Shown: piece by piece, positions 2,612-53,632 of the stretch | How positions within the stretch are numbered: position 1 is the first letter of the stretch | Layout: every line of letters starts with the position of its first letter | IMG/VR virus record: IMGVR_UViG_3300050147_000032 | Reading direction: 5' to 3' (one strand) | Length of the DNA stretch: 64,000 nt | From: a virus | Notes under the pieces: model-generated | What the model was told of the DNA's origin: nothing | Database searches by the model: none | What the model saw: only the letters and a program-made list of their open reading frames with translations | Made by a program: the position numbers and the translations under genes

Positions 2612-3736
2612 TTATTCGGCATTCTTCTGGAGATCGTTGAAGCCAAATTCTTTGTATTTGCGCTTCATGAAATCCTTATAATCATTGCTTCGACCGATGT
2701 AAAGATTCATCACCAAACCAAAAAGCAAGTCATTGATATCTGCCTTCATCTTGATAGCAAAGTCCTTACGAACAAGATGTTTGTTATCTTCGTATGCTTT
2801 TTCTACAGTATAGACAACATGATTGTAAAGAGTCGATACCTTCTCTTGCATATCATCGATTGTTTTCATTGCAAGAGCATCAGTAGCAAACATCGAACGC
2901 AGATCGTCAACACCTTCATCCAAGATACATTCATAAAGTCGACGAGGATTATTAATCGAATCCTTTGCATGATGCAGACTGATATATTTGTCAGTCTTGA
3001 TCTTCACTCGTTGACCATTTTTCATCACAAAGATGAAACCTTCGATATCATCGAGCATCGAAGGGACTTGCTCGATGAATTCCTTATGAGACAAACCGGA
3101 TTGCATGTTAACTAGTGCGTTCATCCATTCAGAAAACCACAAATCGATGTATCCTTTAAGATTCCAGTCAACTTGAATAACGTCAATAGAATTAAGAACA
3201 ATCAGACGTGGTTCCAAGTAGCCTAATACGATGCGATTCCAAGGAGCAACCCATTCCAAATTGACCGTATTACCGTGAACTTCGGCTGATTTAAGTTTCT
3301 TTTTCAAATCAGCATTTTCTGGTTGATCGAGCCACTTCATTGCATCAATAGCTTGCTCAGAGAACAGAGAACCTTTGCTCTTCAATCGAAGTTCACCGTT
3401 ATGCATGTAAGTCGACATCAATGAGCCATCAGACTTAACTTCAATCCAATCAATCTCATTCAGATCAAGATTCATCGTCATTGGATTCTCATTGATGTTG
3501 AAGAACTTTGGCATAGGCAAAGATGCCAAACGCACACAGTCGCCGTCCTTCGTAACTTCAAACATCGTACCACGACACCACAAAGCACCCGGCAACATGA
3601 AATCGGTATAAGTTGCCAGCCGATAGTTGAAGATCCAGTAGATCTTATCATCCAGCAAGAATTCTTGCTTATAGAAAGCTTCGGTTTCTTTCGTCAGCTT
3701 AACGAGTTGGTCAAACAATTCAATCTGCTTATTCAT
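2612..3736 (-). CDS. rnlA: RNA ligase 1 (T4 Rnl1/gp63-like)
   Basis: IFNYRLATY, CRGTMFE, MPKFFNINEN, motif I EVKSDGSL, EGFIF, KIKTDKY. Start moved to the ATG at 3736 behind a GGAG RBS. Confidence 0.92.
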   Translation of the reverse strand: MNKQIELFDQLVKLTKETEAFYKQEFLLDDKIYWIFNYRLATYTDFMLPGALWCRGTMFEVTKDGDCVRLASLPMPKFFNINENPMTMNLDLNEIDWIEVKSDGSLMSTYMHNGELRLKSKGSLFSEQAIDAMKWLDQPENADLKKKLKSAEVHGNTVNLEWVAPWNRIVLGYLEPRLIVLNSIDVIQVDWNLKGYIDLWFSEWMNALVNMQSGLSHKEFIEQVPSMLDDIEGFIFVMKNGQRVKIKTDKYISLHHAKDSINNPRRLYECILDEGVDDLRSMFATDALAMKTIDDMQEKVSTLYNHVVYTVEKAYEDNKHLVRKDFAIKMKADINDLLFGLVMNLYIGRSNDYKDFMKRKYKEFGFNDLQKNAE

Positions 3737-14638: not shown

Positions 14639-15250
14639 ATGAACCATTTGACCAAAGATCATCTTCAGAGGATTAAATCTATTATGAGTTCCGAGTTGAC
14701 ATCTTTGTATGACGACAAGATTGATACAAAAACTACACGAAAACATTTCTATGGATTAGCAGACAAAGCTCATTCAGAAGAAACAAAATACTTTTATCTG
14801 ACAGCAAAGAGACTTTCTAATCGTCTGGGTGCTTTGAATCGGAAGATTTCAAAACTTGAAAGGACGATGCAAGCTCTGAATGATGAGTTGCATCAATCGC
14901 CGAGTTCTGGTAACTTTGTCGATTATGTTATTTCTGCATCATTTAAGATCGACAATTCTGAGATTGATGTTGAAGATGGTCTTGATCTCTTTAATCTTCC
15001 TAATTTGACAGGTTCAGTTGAATCTCGAGTAAAACAAATCATTGCTATGTATCTTGGTGTTGATACGAACAATATGAACGAATCAAATCGAATTATTGAA
15101 GATCTATACGCAGATTCTTTGGATGTTGTTGAGATCGTTATGGCGATTGAAGATGAATTTGGTATCGAAGTTAACGATACAGAAGTTAAAGAACAAGTAC
15201 GGACTGTTCAAGATGCGATTAATTTCGTTCATCGTTATTTGAACATGTAA
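14639..15250 (+). CDS. Coiled-coil protein with C-terminal acyl carrier protein domain
   Basis: C-terminus VKQIIAMYLGV...DLYADSLDVVEIVMAIEDEFGIEV...VRTVQDAINFV is ACP-like with the DSL serine intact. Confidence 0.85.
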   Translation: MNHLTKDHLQRIKSIMSSELTSLYDDKIDTKTTRKHFYGLADKAHSEETKYFYLTAKRLSNRLGALNRKISKLERTMQALNDELHQSPSSGNFVDYVISASFKIDNSEIDVEDGLDLFNLPNLTGSVESRVKQIIAMYLGVDTNNMNESNRIIEDLYADSLDVVEIVMAIEDEFGIEVNDTEVKEQVRTVQDAINFVHRYLNM

Positions 15251-15259
15251 GTACGAAAT

Positions 15260-15349
15260 GGAAGCGTGGCCGAGTGGTTTAAGGCTCTGGTCTTGAAAAC
15301 CAGCGTTCTCGAAAGAGGACCGTGAGTTCGAATCTCACCGCTTCCTCCA
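15260..15349 (+). tRNA. tRNA-Ser(UGA)
   Basis: GGAAGCG/CGCTTCC acceptor, loop CTTGAAA, long variable arm, CCA. Confidence 0.95.
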
Positions 15350-15355
15350 GAATGT

Positions 15356-15431
15356 TGGGGATTAGCTCAGTTGGTAGAGCAGTAGATTTTGATTCTACGT
15401 GTCATTGGTTCGAATCCAATATCCCTTGCCA
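15356..15431 (+). tRNA. tRNA-Gln(UUG)
   Basis: GTAGA-TTTTGAT-TCTAC anticodon arm, TTCGAAT T-loop, G73, CCA. Confidence 0.95.
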
Positions 15432-15436
15432 ATAAT

Positions 15437-15543
15437 GCGTCGTTAGCTCAGTTGGTAGAGCATCGGACTTACATCAAGTGCAGAGAAATACTGCACTTTA
15501 GTTAATCCGCAGGTCGCTGGTTCAAGTCCAGCACGACGCACCA
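15437..15543 (+). tRNA. tRNA-Lys(UUU)-like gene with a 31-nt insertion in the anticodon loop
   Basis: 107 nt minus 31 gives a canonical 76 nt. Body closely resembles enterobacterial tRNA-Lys. Removing 15471-15501 gives loop CT-TTT-AA. Confidence 0.8.
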
Positions 15544-15563: not shown

Positions 15564-15974
15564 ATGACAGAACTTGTTATCGTTCGTGGAATTCCTGGCT
15601 CTGGTAAGAGCACATATGCCAAGACTCTGGGCTATCTGAATTACGAAGCAGATCAATATTTTATTGATCCAGAAGGAAATTATCTTTTTGATGCAACTAA
15701 GCTTTATCAAGCTCATCGTTGGTGTCAGGAAAAGACTCGATCTGCTTTGAGCGATGGTCTTTCTGTTGTTGTGAGCAATACTTTCACAACTCGCAAAGAA
15801 ATGAAAGACTATCTTGAAATGGCGTATGAACTGCATATTCCGGTTCGCGTTGTCAAGGTTCTTGGGAATTTTCAGAATGTGCACGGTGTCCCAGAAGAAG
15901 CATTGGAACGTATGCGCAATCGTTGGCAAGACGTCGAAGGCGAATCAGTAGTCGACAATCGGATTATGATTTGA
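15564..15974 (+). CDS. P-loop kinase (polynucleotide-kinase-like, AAA_33 type)
   Basis: VIVRGIPGSGKST, EADQYF, VVVSNTF, NVHGVP. Confidence 0.85.
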   Translation: MTELVIVRGIPGSGKSTYAKTLGYLNYEADQYFIDPEGNYLFDATKLYQAHRWCQEKTRSALSDGLSVVVSNTFTTRKEMKDYLEMAYELHIPVRVVKVLGNFQNVHGVPEEALERMRNRWQDVEGESVVDNRIMI

Positions 15975-15975
15975 T

Positions 15976-16548
15976 ATGGCAAATATTTTCTTAATTTCAG
16001 ATCAACATTTTGGTCACAAGAATATCTTAAATTTCAAGCGTCGAGATGGGATCACGCCACTACGTTTGTTTGATTCGTCCGAAGAAATGGATGAACACAT
16101 GGTAGATTGTCATAATAAGGTCGTGAAGCCAAATGACAAAATCTACATGCTTGGTGATCTTGCGATGAACAAGAAATTTCTTCCTATTCTGGATCGTTTG
16201 AATGGTGAAAAGATTTTGATCAAAGGAAATCATGATCAAGATTCTTTGGCTGTATATGCAAAGTATTTCAAAGATGTTCGAGCATCACATCAACTTGCTG
16301 GTCATATCTTGACTCACATCCCAATTCATTCAAATTCTCTGAGTCGTTGGAAGAAGAATCTACATGGCCATCTACATGCAGATGTCGTTGGTGATCTTGA
16401 TACAGATGGTATTTGGCAACCAGATCATCGGTATGTCTGTCTCTCTGTCGAGCATACCAATTATTTTCCGATTGCACTCGAAGACATTGATACGTTTGCT
16501 AATGAACAGCACGATAAGGCTATACTTTCAACAAAGACTGTTGTATAA
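15976..16548 (+). CDS. Calcineurin-like metallophosphoesterase
   Basis: ISDQHFGH, LGDL, KGNHD, THIP, LHGHLH. Confidence 0.88.
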   Translation: MANIFLISDQHFGHKNILNFKRRDGITPLRLFDSSEEMDEHMVDCHNKVVKPNDKIYMLGDLAMNKKFLPILDRLNGEKILIKGNHDQDSLAVYAKYFKDVRASHQLAGHILTHIPIHSNSLSRWKKNLHGHLHADVVGDLDTDGIWQPDHRYVCLSVEHTNYFPIALEDIDTFANEQHDKAILSTKTVV

Positions 16549-17188: not shown

Positions 17189-17277
17189 GGGCGGGTAGCC
17201 GAATTGGTCTAGGCATCAGACTTAAAATCTGACTGAAGGTAACTTCACTGTGGGTTCGAGTCCCATCCCGCCCACCA
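17189..17277 (+). tRNA. tRNA-Leu(UAA)
   Basis: GGGCGGG/CCCGCCC, TCAGA-CTTAAAA-TCTGA, long variable arm, CCA. Confidence 0.95.
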
Positions 17278-24974: not shown

Positions 24975-25060
24975 GCGGGGTTAGCTCAGTTGGTAGAGCA
25001 CTTGCCTTCCAAGCAAGAGGCGAATAGTTTACATCGGTTCGAGCCCGATACTCCGCTCCA
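24975..25060 (+). tRNA. tRNA-Gly(UCC) with a long variable region
   Basis: CTTGC-CTTCCAA-GCAAG, U73, CCA; 15-nt variable region. Confidence 0.9.
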
Positions 25061-25070
25061 ATTACAATTG

Positions 25071-25156
25071 GCATAGGTAGCCAAGTGGTCGAAGGCGATG
25101 GATTGCAAATCCAATGAAGAAATTCCACGTCAGTTCGAATCTGACCCTATGCTCCA
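25071..25156 (+). tRNA. tRNA-Cys(GCA) with a long variable region
   Basis: TGGA-TTGCAAA-TCCA, U73, CCA; 14-nt variable region. Confidence 0.9.
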
Positions 25157-25804: not shown

Positions 25805-25889
25805 TTAAGCTAAAAATGCTTTACTTTTCTTTGAACTTTGTTATAATCAGATTTGGAATTTTCCAAATTAACCTTTGAAAGAGAATATT

Positions 25890-26597
25890 ATGATCGATTT
25901 TTCGGCTCTGAGCCTTGCTTCTATTGATTTCGCTGCTGTTGCCAAGATTATTGGCATCGATATCATGCTAGGTGGTGATAATGCTGTTGTCATTGCACTA
26001 GCATGTTCTGCTTTGCCTGTTGCTATGCGAAACAAAGGCATGTTCTTTGGCACTGCTGGTGCTGTAGTTATGCGAGGACTATTTCTTGCTATTGCAGGTC
26101 TTGTTCTTGGTATTCCTTTTGTCAAAGTCATCGCCGGTGCTTGGTTGTTCTGGATTGGCTATAGTCTACTGATTGCAAATGATGGAGATGAACACAACAT
26201 CACTCCAGCAGACAGTTTGCTTGGTGCAATCAAAACGATTATCATTGCAGATATCATGATGAGCGTTGATAATGTGATGGCAGTTGCATCTGCTGCAGAA
26301 TCTACTGGTGCTCATAGCACATTGTATGCAGTTGCTGGTATTTTGTTCAGTGTTCCTATCATTGTTCTTGGTGCTCAAGTTATCATGAAATTGATGGATC
26401 GATTCCCTGTCATTGTCTGGGGCGGAGCTGGTCTGCTGGGCTGGGTTGGTGCTGAGATGATTATTTCTGATCCCAATATGCACAACATCGTAAGTGATGA
26501 TCAACATCTGATTTTCAAGATTCTTGGTTTTGTTGTTGTGATTATTGCAGCTCTTGCTCAGAAAAAGTTCACCACAAAGCACGAAACTGCTGTATAA
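25890..26597 (+). CDS. terC: TerC/YjbE-family membrane protein
   Basis: IDIMLGGDNAVVIALAC, IIIADIMMSVDNVMAVA. Confidence 0.92.
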   Translation: MIDFSALSLASIDFAAVAKIIGIDIMLGGDNAVVIALACSALPVAMRNKGMFFGTAGAVVMRGLFLAIAGLVLGIPFVKVIAGAWLFWIGYSLLIANDGDEHNITPADSLLGAIKTIIIADIMMSVDNVMAVASAAESTGAHSTLYAVAGILFSVPIIVLGAQVIMKLMDRFPVIVWGGAGLLGWVGAEMIISDPNMHNIVSDDQHLIFKILGFVVVIIAALAQKKFTTKHETAV

Positions 26598-26621
26598 TTT
26601 GATTTTAACCGAAAAGGAAAT

Positions 26622-27263
26622 ATGATGACTAATCTTGTTTTGAATCTGACTAAGCCCAATGAAACTCCTGCTAAGTTGCAGTTGAATCTGAAGAAAGGTG
26701 AATCTTTTGTTGTTAAGCTATCCTGGGATGGCTCGACTGACTTGGATCTACATGCTATCTATTGTGTGAATACTGGTGCCGGAGCGAAGGTCAGTGCTCT
26801 CGAAGACATCTTGTCCACATATAATCTGAAGCGAACAATCCAAGGCCAAGAAGTTGGTACTTTGCCGAAGAATCCAGATGGTTCGTTCGAAATTCGTAAT
26901 GGTGCTTTGAAGCATTCTGCTGATGCTCTTGATGGTACTGCCGTTGGTGATGACGAATGGATTCGAATCGATCCATCGAAGCTGGTCGCATCAATTGGTT
27001 CGAATATCGAAATTCCTCTGATCGCCATGATCCACCCGCAATCTGCTGGTTTGAAGTTTGCTAATGTACAGAATGCGAAGGTCACTATCTTGAATGCAGA
27101 TAACGCAGTTTTGATGACAGCAACTCTTTCTTCGATGTTCGGTGAATTTGTTGGTGTTCAAATGGGATCCATTATCATCGAATCTGATGGGAAGTCTACA
27201 TTTGCTCAAGTTGGTGTCGGGTTCAATCTCGATTTCAATGGCGTTATCGCTAACTTTGCATAA
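26622..27263 (+). CDS. TerD-family stress protein
   Basis: LNLKKGE, LSWDGSTDLDLHA, HSAD...GDDEWIRID; adjacent to terC. Confidence 0.75.
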   Translation: MMTNLVLNLTKPNETPAKLQLNLKKGESFVVKLSWDGSTDLDLHAIYCVNTGAGAKVSALEDILSTYNLKRTIQGQEVGTLPKNPDGSFEIRNGALKHSADALDGTAVGDDEWIRIDPSKLVASIGSNIEIPLIAMIHPQSAGLKFANVQNAKVTILNADNAVLMTATLSSMFGEFVGVQMGSIIIESDGKSTFAQVGVGFNLDFNGVIANFA

Positions 27264-27272
27264 GGAATAATC

Positions 27273-28025
27273 ATGGCTCTGACACTTAATCTCCAAAAAT
27301 CCGAACAAACCTTGAAGCTGTGCCTTCAAAAGAAGGGTATTGCTACTCCACCTCCTGTTGACTTTGCTGTTCTTCTGGATGTATCTGGTTCATTTGAAGA
27401 TGAACATGCAAGCGGTATCACAAATGATCTGATTACTCGTCTTGTTCCATGGGGCATGACTTTTGATCCAGATCGAAAGCTTGATGTAATTACATTCAGT
27501 GATGGACAAGGACATGTCGAAAATGTTGGTTCCATCACCGAAGATAACTATCCTGGTTTTGTCAAGAAGTATGTAATCAACAAGGTTCGTGGCTGGTGCG
27601 GTGGTACAGACTACTCGTATGCTATCGAAGAAGCACTTCGTGTATTTGGTTGGCTATCGAGTGATTCTATCACAGAAAAGGCATCTGGATTCTTTGGTTC
27701 TCTGTTCGGTAAGAAGACTCCAGCAAAGGTAGAAGCACAACGACTTGCTGTTGCTTTCATTATCACAGATGGTCAGAACTATGACCAAACTCGTACTGAA
27801 CAAATCTTCCATGATTCAGAACTGCGTGGTGACAAAGTCTACTTCATGTTCATTGGTGTATCGAACAATCCAACAGAATTCCGTTTTGTTGATCAAATGG
27901 CCGATATGTTTTCGAATGTTGGTATTGTGAAGGTTCCGAACATTCGTAAATTTGTCGAGCAAACTGATGAACAATTGAATGAACAGTTTATCACCGATGA
28001 ATTTGTGAATTGGTTGAAGAATTGA
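27273..28025 (+). CDS. Ter-associated vWA domain protein
   Basis: MIDAS motif LLDVSGSF, GGTDY, FIITDG, FMFIGV. Confidence 0.85.
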   Translation: MALTLNLQKSEQTLKLCLQKKGIATPPPVDFAVLLDVSGSFEDEHASGITNDLITRLVPWGMTFDPDRKLDVITFSDGQGHVENVGSITEDNYPGFVKKYVINKVRGWCGGTDYSYAIEEALRVFGWLSSDSITEKASGFFGSLFGKKTPAKVEAQRLAVAFIITDGQNYDQTRTEQIFHDSELRGDKVYFMFIGVSNNPTEFRFVDQMADMFSNVGIVKVPNIRKFVEQTDEQLNEQFITDEFVNWLKN

Positions 28026-43715: not shown

Positions 43716-44133
43716 GAAGATGATACAATAGAAACACATTGAACATGGAGATTGTTATGGCAAAGAATTTTGAAACTCTTGAAGTTGGCAAGTCTTACAA
43801 AAATGGTGCTGGCCTGATCGTTAAAATTATTAAATTCGAAATTGAATACAACGGCGATGAATGGCCTTATTGTGGCGATGATTTATCATTCTATAGAAAA
43901 GATGGTTTTTATGACAATGAAAACCCATCATCAAGAGATCTTGTCGAACTGATTGAAGATAATCTAGTCTCGAACGAAACATTGTTCTTGATTGAGCAAA
44001 ACAATACACTTGTCTTGGTGAAAGATCTTCCGATTGGAAAGTCTATTAAGGTTTTTCAAGTAAATGCAACTCCTCGAGATCTTGATACTGCTTTCAATGT
44101 TTATCAAGCTATAAACTTCACTTGGATCACGCG

Positions 44134-45408
44134 ATGATCAAAATCGAATCAACAAATCCAAAGTTTTCTTGGATTCTCAGGAAAAATCCTGAGACACAAC
44201 GAACAAAGAATGAGCCATTCTCAAAAGCATTGCGTAAAGGAATGTCGTATGGATGGTTCACAACGGATCAACAATTCAATCTTTTGTTCATCGATTCGAA
44301 GACAGAGACATCCTTCAATACGATTGGCGACTTCGAATATCTCGATCGGACACGCTACTGTTCGCCATATCTTCCGATTGCATTGATTGCTAATCTTTTG
44401 GCATCTGCACAAAAAGAAGATGTTCCGGAAGATACAGCTGACTTTCAAACGACTATCGAGTTCATTTCAGAATTTTCTGATCCAAAACTTGCACATCGAG
44501 TCATCAAAACAGTAACAGATGCAAAGATTGAGCTTGTGCAGATGCAACACCATCTATACAATGTGAAAATCAGTGCAACCGGAGTTCGAAAAGCTCTGAA
44601 TTGGACTATTGCTTTCTTGATCACACAAGCTGTCTTGGATCCGATGATTTACATTCCCATGGATGATGAATCTGTGAAGAAGTACATCAATGCACTGAAT
44701 ATCGTTGACGCGCCGTATTACATGCGTTACATCACAGCAAACAAATGCATTAAATCTCCTGTTGTTTTTGACACGGTGAAGAATTCTCTGGAAAACGAAA
44801 AGTTCCAGATGAACTTTGGAGATTCACAGAATCATCGTTGGCTTGCTATTGAGAAGCATTTGAATGGTGGCGCTGCTCTTTTTGATATTGGTTGCGGTGA
44901 GTTGTATTATACTCGTCGTCTATACAATCGATATGAGAAGTTCTTTGCTTTTGATGCAGATGAAAAGATCCAAGATCGAAATAAACATCTAGTAAATCTA
45001 CGTTGTCAAGATAAGATTGATCTACTGGGGAAATTTGATTCGACGTATGCAGATGGAAGTATCACAGATAAAGATGATGTTCTATTGACAGAAGTGTTGG
45101 AACACATGCCCAAGGAAACTGCTGTGGAACTACTGGATCAGGTTCTACGTGGTGATTTCCGTCGAGTTGTTGTCACTGTACCTAATGTTGATTTTAATCG
45201 ATTTTACGGCCTCTACGGCGATGATAAACGACATCCAGATCATCATTACGAACCGACTCAAACAGAATTCGAAACTTGGATGAAAAATGCAGCATCAAAA
45301 GTTGGATGTGGTGTTGAATTCTTCAATGTTGGAGATGGAGTAATTGTAAATGGACAATCGATCTATGCTTCACTTGGAGCAACTTTTAAAAAGGAAAAGA
45401 ATGAGTAA
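44134..45408 (+). CDS. hen1: Hen1 RNA 2'-O-methyltransferase (bacterial type: N-terminal ligase-activating domain plus C-terminal MTase)
   Basis: FDIGCGE, LTEVLEH, TVPNVDFN, RHPDHHYE.T..EF..W, F..VG are Hen1 MTase motifs. Confidence 0.85.
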   Translation: MIKIESTNPKFSWILRKNPETQRTKNEPFSKALRKGMSYGWFTTDQQFNLLFIDSKTETSFNTIGDFEYLDRTRYCSPYLPIALIANLLASAQKEDVPEDTADFQTTIEFISEFSDPKLAHRVIKTVTDAKIELVQMQHHLYNVKISATGVRKALNWTIAFLITQAVLDPMIYIPMDDESVKKYINALNIVDAPYYMRYITANKCIKSPVVFDTVKNSLENEKFQMNFGDSQNHRWLAIEKHLNGGAALFDIGCGELYYTRRLYNRYEKFFAFDADEKIQDRNKHLVNLRCQDKIDLLGKFDSTYADGSITDKDDVLLTEVLEHMPKETAVELLDQVLRGDFRRVVVTVPNVDFNRFYGLYGDDKRHPDHHYEPTQTEFETWMKNAASKVGCGVEFFNVGDGVIVNGQSIYASLGATFKKEKNE

Positions 45409-51265: not shown

Positions 51266-53632
51266 ATGAAACAACATACAATCGTTCTACTCGTTGGTCC
51301 TTCTTGTTGCGGAAAGACAACGTTTGCCAAGAAGATCCAAGCAGCAATCGTCGAAGAAAATCTGAAATGTGTGATCATTTCATCAGATGACATTCGACGT
51401 GATCTGCTTTGCGACAATGAGATTCATAAGCTCGATGCATCGATGTCTTCTGTATCAGCCGAAGCCCATCATATCCTGAAGACAAAGGTTGATTTTCACT
51501 CGAAGTTTCCTATCAATACGGATGTCATCATCGTTGATACGACTGGATTGTCTGCTCATTTCCGTGAAGAAATGATCGAGATTGCAAAGAAGAATCATTA
51601 CAACATTGATATGTTCGTGTTTGATTATCCTCGTTCTGATCTCGAAGGATTTGTTGCTTTGAATCACGGCGACATGTATGTTACTGGTCATCAAATGAAA
51701 CGCCTCCGCGAAGAGGTTATGCCCAATCTAAATCGCAAGGCATATGGAATGGTTCAAATTTTCAAGAAGCCAGAAGATGCTGTTGCTTGGATTCCTACTA
51801 TCGAGAATCGTGATGTTGTCATTCAAGCAAATGAAGATGATAAGATCGTCGTCATCGGAGATGTGCATGAATGTGTCGATGAGCTAGTTGCTCTGTTTGA
51901 TAAAATTCCAACTAACGTCAATCATATCGCTCTTCTAGGGGATATCGTTGATAAAGCTGAAGACACAGAACGTCTGATCAACTTGATTTTTGATATGACA
52001 AAGAGTCAGAAGAATTACGATTTCTTCTTGATTCGAGGAAATCATGAACGATATGTTTACAAGCGACTGAAGGGGATTCTTGCTCCCAACGAAAAGCTTG
52101 ACAATGAATTCTTCCAATCATTCAAAGTGCTTTCTGTAGATGAAAATCTTCGAGAAAAGTTCTTCTTCCTGTATGAAAATGTGATGGTGGATCATCTGAA
52201 GTTTATTCGTGGACGAGAAAAAGCTATTATTCTGACTCATGCTCCTTGCTCCAATGTTCATCTGGGAAAGCATGACAGCAAGTCATCTGGTAAACAGATC
52301 AACTTCTACTTCACTTCTCGTGATCAAGAAAAGATGCTCGATGAACTGAAATTCATCGAAGATGAAGCAGATAGCAATCATCCTTGGCATCTGTTTGGTC
52401 ATGTTGCTCATGATGGTCGTCAACCTAAGATGATCAAGAACAAGATCTTCATGGATACTGGCTGTGTTCATGGCGGGAAACTGTCTGCCGCAGTATTCAA
52501 TGGTCGTCATGTTGATTTCATCACAGTTGATTCCAAACGTGAAGTTCATGGTTTGATTTCTCTGGAAAAGAAAGAAACGAAACTGGAGAAGATTGTTCGT
52601 TCTGATATCAATCTTTCCGAAGAAGATCAACGATCGGTAGATAAAATTGCAAAGAGCGGAGCGAAGTTCATTTCCGGGACAATGGCTCCTGCTCCTTCAA
52701 AAGATATGGATATCGAGTCTCTGGAAGCTGCTGTTTCATATTTCAAGGAACGAGTGACAGATGTTGTAATTCAACCGAAATATATGGGATCTCGTTGTCA
52801 ATTTTATCTCTACAAGGATCGAGCAAAGAACTTTGCAACTTCCAGGAATGGATTCAAAATCAAGATTGATAAACTTCAAGAATACATGGATGTGTATCAA
52901 ACATGGATCGAGAAGTCTATCAAATTTGAAGATGAGTTGATTTTGGATGGAGAACTTCTTCCTTGGTCAGCACTCGGTAAAGGTCTGATTGATGGTGCTT
53001 TTGGTCAATATCAAAGCGCTATCAGTTGGACTCTAGATAACCTGAGTCTCGATGAAACTTTTGCTGGATTTGATATTTGCAAGAAACTGAACATCACAGA
53101 GCAACAAAACAATCTTGTTCAGTTTCAGGAACAGCTTGCTCTATATGGCCAAGATCGTCATCTGGAATATAAAGCATTCGACATCCTTTCTATTGATGGG
53201 AAGATTGTTGCTGGTAAGCAAAATGATACGAGCTTCTTTGTGTTGAATTCAGATAAGACTTTGAAGATTAATCTGAACGAACCAGATGCACTTTTCCGTA
53301 TTCAGAATTTCTTTGATGTGCTTGTTTTTGATAAGGGATTTGAAGGTATTGTGATCAAGCCTGTTTCTTATGATTCGAGCAAGAATTGTGTTCCTTACAT
53401 GAAAGTCCGCAACAAAGAATATCTGCGTCTTGTGTATGGTTTCAACTATGCATCGCGCTTGTCCGAACTATGCAAGCAAAAGAATACTCGTGGAAAGATG
53501 AACTTGTCGATTGATGAATTTGAACTTGGTCAGGCTATTCTTGCTGAGAAGGATGATGTAAAGCGTAAGCATCTGATTTCTGCGATGTTCGGTAAGATCG
53601 CTAAAGAACGCACTTTGGATCCACGTCTGTGA
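51266..53632 (+). CDS. pnkp: Polynucleotide kinase-phosphatase Pnkp (kinase, phosphoesterase and ligase domains)
   Basis: GPSCCGKT, SSDDIR; GDVHE, GDIVD, RGNHE, FGH, DTGCVHGGKLSA; ISGTMAP, KYMGSR, DGELLPWS, EGIVIKP, KVRNKEYLRLVYG; ends DPRL. Confidence 0.9.
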   Translation: MKQHTIVLLVGPSCCGKTTFAKKIQAAIVEENLKCVIISSDDIRRDLLCDNEIHKLDASMSSVSAEAHHILKTKVDFHSKFPINTDVIIVDTTGLSAHFREEMIEIAKKNHYNIDMFVFDYPRSDLEGFVALNHGDMYVTGHQMKRLREEVMPNLNRKAYGMVQIFKKPEDAVAWIPTIENRDVVIQANEDDKIVVIGDVHECVDELVALFDKIPTNVNHIALLGDIVDKAEDTERLINLIFDMTKSQKNYDFFLIRGNHERYVYKRLKGILAPNEKLDNEFFQSFKVLSVDENLREKFFFLYENVMVDHLKFIRGREKAIILTHAPCSNVHLGKHDSKSSGKQINFYFTSRDQEKMLDELKFIEDEADSNHPWHLFGHVAHDGRQPKMIKNKIFMDTGCVHGGKLSAAVFNGRHVDFITVDSKREVHGLISLEKKETKLEKIVRSDINLSEEDQRSVDKIAKSGAKFISGTMAPAPSKDMDIESLEAAVSYFKERVTDVVIQPKYMGSRCQFYLYKDRAKNFATSRNGFKIKIDKLQEYMDVYQTWIEKSIKFEDELILDGELLPWSALGKGLIDGAFGQYQSAISWTLDNLSLDETFAGFDICKKLNITEQQNNLVQFQEQLALYGQDRHLEYKAFDILSIDGKIVAGKQNDTSFFVLNSDKTLKINLNEPDALFRIQNFFDVLVFDKGFEGIVIKPVSYDSSKNCVPYMKVRNKEYLRLVYGFNYASRLSELCKQKNTRGKMNLSIDEFELGQAILAEKDDVKRKHLISAMFGKIAKERTLDPRL

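Follow-up and report, generated by a model that had tools for sequence, protein, structure and literature searches.

Introduction

How might an intron leave a transfer RNA (tRNA) in the bacterial world? By the current view, the tRNA genes of bacteria and their viruses contain introns of the self-splicing kind only. Here we describe a viral tRNA-Lys gene that carries a 31-nucleotide hairpin insert inside its anticodon; it lies at positions 15437-15543 of a 64,000-nucleotide stretch of DNA (hereafter the window) taken from the 96,962-base IMG/VR virus record IMGVR_UViG_3300050147_000032, which is rated 44% complete. Judging from sequence comparisons, we lean towards the view that the insert is a protein-spliced, mobile mini-intron in a working tRNA-Lys(UUU) gene. 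It belongs to a sparse set of short, non-ribozyme inserts in phage tRNA anticodons, which occur repeatedly between positions 34 and 35 (34/35) and are probably mobile.

Short inserts of this general kind were reported as "enigmatic" introns in the tRNAs of Lak megaphages, where they are conserved, are present in some strains and absent from others, and have no known mechanism (Devoto et al. 2019; PMC6784885). The authors knew of no earlier report of such introns, and their paper does not seem to show splicing of the Lak introns. The inserts considered here resemble those of Lak phages in being short, in lying in the anticodon region, in being present or absent among relatives, in being conserved, and in belonging to no known ribozyme class. 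They differ in that the Lak tRNA-Thr insert depicted there is itself tRNA-like and comes from phages of more than 540 kilobases (kb) with a Prevotella host, whereas the insert in the window is a plain 8-base-pair (bp) hairpin with short linkers, located at 34/35 of a tRNA-Lys in a T4-like soil phage and adjoining candidate end-healing genes. The paper on Xanthomonas phage XacN1 lists Pnkp, Hen1, and one tRNA pseudogene and no intron, and a survey of RNA repair in jumbo phages leaves tRNA introns unmentioned. Our literature search turned up no description of hairpin-type inserts at 34/35 and none of how they are spliced. What is new is the hairpin type, the 34/35 site, the T4-like soil phage, and the tRNA-Lys; the kind itself is barely described.

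Archaeal and eukaryal tRNA introns are cut by the EndA/Sen endonuclease at a bulge-helix-bulge (BHB) motif or by a ruler mechanism, and the exons are then ligated by RtcB or Trl1. The window insert shares with these introns a short, structured, non-self-splicing form, a location in the anticodon loop, and a precursor tRNA (pre-tRNA) that keeps the mature cloverleaf, and for the insert, too, excision and ligation by proteins would be the sole plausible means of removal; moreover, a ruler-type choice of cut sites would fit its lack of an end consensus. In contrast to them, it has no BHB, it lies at 34/35 rather than at the canonical 37/38, and neither EndA nor RtcB is found in the record. We know of no bacteria that possess an EndA/Sen-type splicing endonuclease. 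Group I introns of tRNA-Leu(UAA) and tRNA-fMet likewise lie in the anticodon loop, are present or absent among relatives, and appear mobile with exchange of the flanking exons, but they are about 200 nucleotides (nt) or longer and contain a P1-P9 catalytic core, whereas the insert measures 31 nt.

A fourth comparison is with tRNA repair. Breakage of tRNA-Lys by PrrC is mended by T4 Pnk and Rnl1, and repair by the bacterial Pnkp-Hen1 system 2'-O-methylates the junction (Chan et al. 2009; PMC3675462, PMC4411300). The present locus resembles these systems in its tRNA, tRNA-Lys(UUU), in the region affected, which is beside the wobble base, and in the enzymes, since Rnl1, Pnkp, and Hen1 are all encoded here in addition to a stand-alone kinase and phosphoesterase. 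The known task of such enzymes is precisely to close breaks in anticodon loops. The locus differs in that PrrC-type repair mends a single cut made by a host toxin in an intact tRNA, while here two cuts would be programmed by structure; and PrrC cuts 5' of U34, not 3' of it.

The Interrupted tRNA Gene

An earlier note, made from the letters of this DNA, had proposed a tRNA-Lys-like gene with a 31-nt insert inside the anticodon, the removal of which restores a 76-nt cloverleaf. Both statements hold. The Rfam tRNA model (RF00005) matches 15437-15540 with 62.2 bits (E 4.5e-11; threshold 29), and its alignment covers all of model positions 1-71 and places about 32 extra nucleotides in the anticodon loop. 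When introns are allowed, ARAGORN calls a tRNA-Lys(ttt) with a 31-nt intron at 15471-15501 and a mature length of 76 nt, and alignment with homologous genes agrees. The gene is made up as follows.

15437..15470, + strand: 5' exon, tRNA nucleotides 1-34 (Rfam, ARAGORN, homology to phage tRNA-Lys)
15471..15501, + strand: intervening sequence, 31 nt (gap against uninterrupted tRNA-Lys genes; folds)
15502..15543, + strand: 3' exon, tRNA nucleotides 35-76 (Rfam, ARAGORN, alignment)

The 5' exon holds the 5' strand of the acceptor stem, the D arm, the 5' strand of the anticodon stem, and C32, U33, and U34; the 3' exon holds U35, U36, A37, and A38, the 3' strand of the anticodon stem, the variable loop, the T arm, the 3' strand of the acceptor stem, A73, and an encoded CCA. 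The exon stems are undamaged, with 7 of 7 pairs in the acceptor stem, 4 of 4 in the D stem, 5 of 5 in the T stem, and 4 of 5 in the anticodon stem (U27-C43 is a mismatch). Between the exons, a 5-nt linker (ACAUC, 15471-15475) precedes the hairpin (15476-15498), and a 3-nt linker (UAG, 15499-15501) follows it. The hairpin is the perfect 8-bp stem that the earlier note had drawn around AGAAATA: in DNA it reads AAGTGCAG / AGAAATA / CTGCACTT, and in RNA AAGUGCAG-AGAAAUA-CUGCACUU, with the 7-nt loop AGAAAUA. The predicted fold of the 107-nt RNA is a cloverleaf (−39.2 kcal/mol, z −4.5; equalled by 0 of 200 shuffles) whose anticodon arm is elongated, running on through a 3x3 internal loop, 2 bp, and a 3x2 loop into the 8-bp hairpin. 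In this predicted fold, the anticodon loop is absent from the pre-tRNA until the insert is removed.

Where exactly does the insert lie, and in which tRNA? Annotated tRNA-Lys genes from phages, those of Aeromonas and Salmonella among them, match the 5' exon across all of its 34 nt with 97% identity, and every annotated gene among the best 40 matches of this exon is a tRNA-Lys. Alignment with the uninterrupted tRNA-Lys of Aeromonas phage 4_4572 and of Salmonella phage Munch yields a single clean 31-nt gap bordered by ...GGACTT and TTAATCC..., with nothing lost and nothing duplicated, and the spliced anticodon arm would equal that of the phage 4_4572 tRNA-Lys. The 3' exon matches the 3' halves of phage tRNA genes; its best-covering matches include the integration-site copies of cluster-N-type mycobacteriophages, which we take to derive from a host tRNA-Lys. 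By homology, then, the insert is between U34 and U35 of a Lys(UUU) anticodon; both the site and the identity are fixed by this homology and not by a choice of register. The Lys-type body, A73, and the UUU anticodon formed upon removal of the insert are those of a tRNA-Lys(UUU), with charging by LysRS as a prediction. Nearest-neighbour typing of the tRNA body against 200-245 phage tRNAs proved too noisy to be of use, and BLAST of the short exons against E. coli genomes was uninformative.

The register deserves separate comment. The earlier note had correctly read four registers of excision from the sequence, giving UUU, GUU, UAU, and UAC, and each of them leaves a 7-nt loop with U33 and A37. 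Splicing in another register, or in several, would therefore produce tRNA-Asn(GUU), tRNA-Ile(UAU), or tRNA-Val(UAC). The record lacks tRNAs for Asn and Val as well as an uninterrupted one for Lys, the gap was bridged in alignment by a bacterial tRNA-Asn contig, and we take the anticodon stem to equal that of E. coli tRNA-Asn and the T arm that of tRNA-Ile2. However, the 97% identity to phage tRNA-Lys includes U34, the spliced arm is that of the phage 4_4572 tRNA-Lys, and the related insert of the sister phages described below has one workable register, which is 34/35. The discriminator, too, is A73, and tRNA-Asn identity depends on G73. We regard excision in any register other than that for Lys as very improbable.

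Could the insertion be an artifact? Contigs from four independent leaf-litter runs match the stretch with no differences listed, and two of them span it in one piece; because these independent contigs agree, assembly error is excluded. The phage is uncultured, and the stretch is present in no fewer than 24 sequencing runs from leaf litter. A contig that lacks 31 nt relative to the stretch was considered as an intron-less allele of the tRNA-Lys and rejected, as it is a bacterial tRNA-Asn of another organism. The window contains no second tRNA-Lys, as the earlier note had said, and this extends to the whole record, 44% complete as it is: the interrupted gene is the sole tRNA-Lys among 20 tRNA genes. 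We found no second copy of the insert in the window when up to 3 mismatches were allowed, no exact copy of it in IMG/VR, and no relative of it with exact or gapped DNA patterns in IMG/VR or with BLAST of GenBank phages.

The insert fits none of the known classes of intron or processing substrate with which we compared it. At 31 nt it lacks the features of group I and group II introns and matches no Rfam intron family even at E values up to 1, nor does it match a small self-cleaving ribozyme in Rfam. No BHB, with its two 3-nt bulges flanking a 4-bp helix, can be drawn; by hand, the sole BHB-like alternative needs G-U, G-U, A-U, and C-C pairs. The fold and Rfam are thus in line with the earlier note, which saw no BHB and judged the insert too short for a ribozyme intron. 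RNase III was rejected by hand since the cuts needed would leave 5' overhangs, not 2-nt 3' overhangs. Lacking a T-loop motif, a 12-bp stack, and CCA, the insert is not minihelix-like, and RNase P plus RNase Z therefore do not fit. The hairpin was not flagged as an intrinsic terminator. Finally, YrlA-type Y RNAs (RF02553) show some likeness in that they have a tRNA shape with no anticodon loop at the tip of the arm, and in the present genome's wealth of RNA-repair genes. YrlA RNAs are circularly permuted, however, with their ends in a stem that replaces the anticodon arm and with a closed acceptor end, whereas the gene in the window has normal topology, A73, CCA, and exons nearly identical to real tRNA-Lys genes. 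A YrlA match at 15400-15461 (19.9 bits against a cut-off of 69) merely joins the T arm of the neighbouring tRNA-Gln to the D arm of the tRNA-Lys.

A Related Insert in tRNA-Leu(UAA) of Sister Phages

An informative comparison comes from three sister-phage contigs (L117, L118, and L119), whose phosphoesterase is 69-73% identical to that of the window. Two genes beyond their kinase and phosphoesterase genes, each carries a class II tRNA with a 34-nt insert. This insert opens with a 5-nt linker whose last base is C, continues as a 10-bp hairpin of the form RAG...YUU around a 6-nt A/U loop, and closes with a 3-nt linker, and the same design is seen in the window: a 5-nt linker ending in C, a RAG...YUU hairpin, an A/U-rich loop of 6-7 nt, and a 3-nt linker. 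In L117 and L119, the sole register that gives a Leu anticodon (UAA) is CUU / insert / AAAA, that is, 34/35, and this site was not dictated by any search pattern. Conservation of the insertion site among relatives, a point raised by the earlier note, is seen in the tRNA-Leu(UAA) of the sister phages; of the Lys insert no relative was found.

The tRNA-Leu(UAA) at the syntenic position is intact in the window and in five other contigs (L120, L132, L133, L135, and L138). Between L117 and L119, 28 of the 34 insert positions are identical (82%), compared with 23 of 35 and 31 of 52 positions in the exons (60-66%). Of the 15 pairs tested in the anticodon stem and insert hairpin, none has been lost and three persist by double changes, and the acceptor stems of the two genes differ at most positions while both are perfectly paired, which points to compensatory change. 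Stems kept through so much exon divergence are not expected of a dead gene. The DNA upstream of the tRNA-Leu is 90-93% identical among L117, L119, and the insert-free L132, and the DNA downstream is 94% identical between L119 and L132, yet within those flanks the exons are only 60-74% identical (L117:1018-1135, L119:2783-2903, L132:3322-3415). Because similar flanks enclose diverged exons, the tRNA-Leu gene can be described as a hypervariable cassette that is open to exchange, and gain or loss of the insert accompanies this exchange. These sequence comparisons speak for the Leu insert as a maintained, probably mobile intron. It shows all the marks of a short, non-ribozyme phage tRNA intron (an insert in the anticodon region, presence or absence among relatives, and conservation); the window Lys insert shows the first of them, being a short insert in the anticodon region of a phage tRNA.

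Two further observations concern this locus. In L134, L136, and L137, the syntenic tRNA-Leu, just after a DUF4884 gene, ends past the D arm and is followed by an open reading frame (ORF) of at least 113 amino acids (aa), which looks like a replacement or insertion event within the tRNA gene. DUF4884, which adjoins the interrupted tRNA-Leu, was considered as a splicing factor and rejected: it is a small lipoprotein and adjoins intact tRNA-Leu genes too. In addition, the Leu-insert hairpin CCCATGATTAAATTCGTGGG occurs outside any tRNA, at about 2550-2567, in an unrelated 104-kb viral contig (L125, IMGVR_UViG_3300032516_000011).

Is the interrupted gene then a young pseudogene, knocked out by a small palindromic mobile element with no function for the phage? 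The insert is an imperfect inverted repeat of 12-13 nt, like miniature palindromic elements; presence and absence among the orthologues shows that insertion or loss events occur; the truncations in L134, L136, and L137 show that such tRNA genes can be lost; and an insert with no sequenced relative, such as that of the window, cannot be dated. Nevertheless, the window holds no second copy of such an element, the exons are intact, the Leu insert has outlasted about 35-40% of exon divergence with compensatory changes in both the exon stems and the hairpin, and each of three independent tRNA sets lacks any other tRNA of the kind that is interrupted. For the sister-phage insert the pseudogene reading is contradicted; for the insert of the window we consider it quite unlikely. 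The design shared with the sister phages, the conservation of the insert above that of the exons, the kept pairs, and an unrelated contig whose only tRNA-Lys is split at the same site (see below) argue that the insert is not a product of chance or decay.

Interrupted tRNA Genes in Other Genomes

Our metagenome pattern scan returned seven matches. One, an unrelated phage contig (L067, the same as L103 in IMG/VR), has 13 tRNAs that include a single tRNA-Lys, and a different insert of 39 nt splits this tRNA-Lys at 34/35. A second match, a 1.1-kb contig (L068, Ga0172363_10274773), contains two interrupted tRNAs in tandem (563-666 and 672-781) within a six-tRNA array; the second of these has a nearly perfect, 35-nt long hairpin, and its register is Lys 36/37, Gln 35/36, or another. 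Two matches were dropped as adjacent tRNAs. The three most family-like matches (L065, L066, and L069) were dropped as archaeal: L065 has Topo VI and RIO1 genes, L066 and L069 have the 3' motif of the L065 insert, and there is a nearly identical gene in a Bathyarchaeia genome. These true archaeal matches, together with L129, differ in their features, and the genes around them are archaeal. In a collection of 185,579 species genomes, the Lys pattern matched no bacterial chromosome; the matches in that collection were an Erwinia tRNA fragment, the archaeon, a chance match, and a 26-nt duplication.

An unbiased scan of IMG/VR for one common D arm followed by an over-long anticodon arm gave 46 loci, which include eukaryote-type tRNA-Tyr introns of giant viruses. 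A few of them resolve as tRNAs, and in these the sites are 34/35 (Lys), 34/35 or 35/36 (Thr), and 36-38. One example is a 342-kb phage, 92% complete (G015), whose tRNA-Thr(UGU), the sole Thr among 28 tRNAs, is split at 34/35 or 35/36. Thus in the window, in L067, and in G015, the interrupted gene stands in for the tRNA of that anticodon rather than beside it.

The same scan brought up a separate, recurring tRNA-like family (L075, L078, L079 with two copies, L083, L085, L088, L093, and L113), in which the anticodon arm carries a variable hairpin, then ACAGCA, and then some 8 nt leading up to an anticodon-like triplet. In most members, the nominal anticodon stem is unpaired.

RNA-Repair Genes and Genome Context

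Gene content marks the phage as T4-like but distant: it encodes RegA, the gp62 clamp-loader subunit, a family B DNA polymerase, gp45, and gp15. The phage does encode Rnl1, Pnkp, and Hen1, which the earlier note had brought up, as well as a separate kinase and phosphoesterase pair. The relevant genes are as follows.

15260..15431, + strand: tRNA-Ser(UGA) and tRNA-Gln(UUG) (ARAGORN, Rfam)
15564..15974, + strand: P-loop kinase, 136 aa, candidate polynucleotide 5'-kinase (Pfam, PHROG)
15976..16548, + strand: metallophosphoesterase, 190 aa, candidate 2',3'-phosphate end-healing enzyme (PHROG 547 "phosphoesterase", 1.8e-46)
17189..17277, + strand: tRNA-Leu(UAA), uninterrupted, counterpart of the interrupted gene in L117, L118, and L119
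2612..3811, − strand: T4 Rnl1-type RNA ligase, candidate sealing enzyme (PF09511, 54.7 bits at 2984-3577)
44122..45408, + strand: Hen1, with an N-terminal ligase-activating domain and a C-terminal methyltransferase (Hen1_N, 1.5e-43)
51266..53632, + strand: Pnkp, 788 aa, with kinase, metallophosphatase, and ligase domains (AAA_33 2.8e-11, Metallophos 2.3e-13, PNKP_ligase 2.1e-24)

The tRNA-Ser, the tRNA-Gln, and the interrupted tRNA-Lys are separated by 5-6 nt each and probably lie on one tRNA transcript. The kinase start codon falls 21 nt past the CCA of the interrupted tRNA. The kinase matches Pfam AAA_33 (5.3e-13), PHROG 2071 (2.3e-36), and PHROG 505 "polynucleotide kinase" (4.1e-10), and in several phages its homologues have RNA ligase genes as neighbours. 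Kinase and phosphoesterase are also encoded by adjacent genes in L119, L133, and L135; among the relatives compared by synteny through this pair, none shows a tRNA-Lys in front of the kinase. In an alignment of 38 Hen1 homologues, the SAM motif GCGE and the EVLEH/HDDH residues are invariant. By their domains, Pnkp and Hen1 constitute a bacterial-type Pnkp-Hen1 system, the two genes being about 6 kb apart and not adjacent. In the 97-kb record, 44% complete, we found no RtcB gene and no match to the EndA/Sen-type endonuclease family PF01974 at E values up to 1, under conditions in which archaeal controls matched. A hunt for proteins shared with L067 or L103, aimed at the endonuclease, found none in common.

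Other features of the region can be noted. Directly upstream of the tRNA cluster (14639-15250), a 203-aa protein ends in 70 residues that form an acyl-carrier (phosphopantetheine-binding) domain. At 25875-28025, within the phage tRNA region, lies a trio of TerC, TerD, and vWA-TerF-like genes, that is, stress genes of the tellurite-resistance type. The tRNA-Gly(UCC) at 24975-25060 and the tRNA-Cys(GCA) at 25071-25156 are 86 nt each, with variable regions of about 15 nt that are unusual for class I, and phage XacN1 too has over-long Gly, Cys, Lys(CUU), Thr, and Asn tRNAs. Finally, Hen1-bearing phages contain permuted, two-piece transfer-messenger RNA (tmRNA) genes: one in G011 (L059:6027-6231, − strand; Rfam tmRNA_permuted, 81.5 bits), and one called by ARAGORN in XacN1 (L139:7702-8122).

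Discussion

How would the insert be removed? We propose that an endonuclease, of the phage or of its host, would cut on both sides of it; such cutting is what one expects of an insert that cannot self-splice and has no BHB. The intron ends show no consensus (first bases A, A, U, C, and C; last bases G, G, A, A, and A), so the cut sites are probably set by structure, either as a distance from the anticodon stem or by the hairpin. The cuts would fall 3 nt past the 5' strand of the anticodon stem and 4 nt before its 3' strand. The tRNA halves would then be healed and sealed by RNA-repair enzymes of the phage, for which the candidates are the adjoining kinase and phosphoesterase, Rnl1, or Pnkp with Hen1. 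Until then, the unspliced RNA would be invisible to enzymes that read the anticodon loop of tRNA-Lys.

Several observations weigh against splicing as we propose it. The window insert has no sequenced relative, and selection on it is argued by analogy with the Leu insert of the sister phages and from its intact exons. The covariation in that Leu insert comes from two sequences and, being equalled in 63 of 500 shuffles, is statistically weak. In L067 and L068, the search pattern forced CTT...TTAA flanks, so the site found there is not independent evidence, and across other phage tRNAs the insert sites vary from 34/35 to 36-38. Searches of the neighbouring and other ORFs with Pfam, PHROG, and Atlas gave no candidate nuclease. 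No RNA run is listed among those that contain the stretch, and splicing is therefore something that we infer. Given a record that is only 44% complete, an intact tRNA-Lys may lie elsewhere in the genome. The repair genes, in turn, do not track the inserts: none of the 23 viral contigs with interrupted tRNA-like genes carries Hen1, 10 of them being at least 90% complete, and 3 of the 23 carry Rnl1; conversely, 14 Hen1-bearing IMG/VR contigs (13 with tRNAs, 180 tRNAs in all) contain no convincing interrupted tRNA. Xanthomonas phage XacN1 does have both Hen1 and a 106-nt interrupted tRNA (AP018399.1, 30282-30387), but there the insert is at 32/33 and an intact tRNA-Trp is also present.

One more Hen1-related candidate was considered. 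In Stenotrophomonas phage RAS14 (296018-296151, the same as L028:519-652, − strand), a tRNA-like gene of 134 nt scores 39 bits with Rfam, has some 57-70 additional nucleotides in its anticodon arm, and is predicted to fold poorly (z +0.6). We rejected a link between Hen1 and interrupted tRNAs, because the site in XacN1 differs and its gene is redundant, the RAS14 gene folds poorly, and the wider tallies show no association. The protein-spliced phage intron of the earlier note is thus upheld in one part: presence and absence, conservation, and compensatory changes in the sister phages speak for a maintained insert. The co-occurrence with Hen1 that would tie it to a repair pathway did not hold, in 0 of 23 contigs in one direction and in the 13 tRNA-bearing contigs in the other.

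Some of the same observations would suit an RNA that is functional and never spliced, namely a tRNA-Lys look-alike with a hairpin in place of its anticodon that acts as a decoy, sponge, or inhibitor. Its target could be a host enzyme that binds the tRNA-Lys body (PrrC, RloC, PARIS AriB, or a modification enzyme), or its partner a phage RNA-binding protein. Many of the IMG/VR genes with anticodon-arm inserts yield no canonical anticodon loop and resemble non-coding RNAs. The failure of phage Hen1 and Rnl1 to co-occur with such genes, even in complete genomes, and the intact tRNA-Trp beside the interrupted copy in XacN1 fit this alternative. So does the pattern of conservation between L117 and L119, where the insert, loop and linkers included, is more conserved than the exons, as a protein-binding site would be; and the hairpin sequence of the Leu insert also occurs outside a tRNA in another viral contig. 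However, the flanks (CUU / UUAA in the Lys gene, CUU / AAAA in the Leu gene) are those expected when a functional loop is cleanly interrupted, no base being missing or repeated; A73 and CCA, which are needed for charging, are retained; the interrupted genes replace the tRNA of that anticodon in the window, in L067, and in the 92%-complete G015; and the syntenic tRNA-Leu locus holds either the interrupted or the intact form. A decoy of this kind we judge unlikely, though it deserves serious attention beside the mini-intron that we favour.

A more specific version of the mini-intron can also be imagined, in which the insert serves as a break point built into the gene and so channels the tRNA into the phage Pnkp-Hen1 system. 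Excision would leave U34 as the 3' end of the 5' half; its 2'-OH would be methylated by Hen1 and the loop then sealed by Pnkp, so that the tRNA would emerge pre-immunised, with Um34. That modification would protect tRNA-Lys, and tRNA-Leu(UAA) in the sister phages, from transesterifying nucleases that cut 3' of the wobble base, and the unspliced precursor would meanwhile be unreadable to anticodon nucleases. Pnkp-Hen1 sealing with 2'-O-methylation of U34 is attractive but unsupported, and we think the break-point scheme improbable. If it were true, a Pnkp-Hen1 system would have its long-sought natural substrate, and the bacterial world its first pathway of tRNA splicing that depends on proteins.

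Finally, the case described here sharpens the problem posed by short phage tRNA introns. The insert is minimal, a single hairpin, and homology fixes its site to one phosphodiester bond, 34/35; sister phages repeat the design at 34/35 in a different tRNA, where it bears signs of selection and of mobility; and the enzymes that healing and sealing of a broken anticodon loop require are all encoded by the phage. Should the insert be spliced, an undiscovered endonuclease and a protein-based tRNA splicing pathway would exist in phage-infected bacteria, with a probable tie to the arms race over tRNA-Lys in which PrrC, PARIS, and RloC take part. If it is not spliced, it would represent a new kind of tRNA decoy. 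Either way, phage tRNA genes appear as fast-swapping cassettes, which bears on how phages escape tRNA-directed defence.

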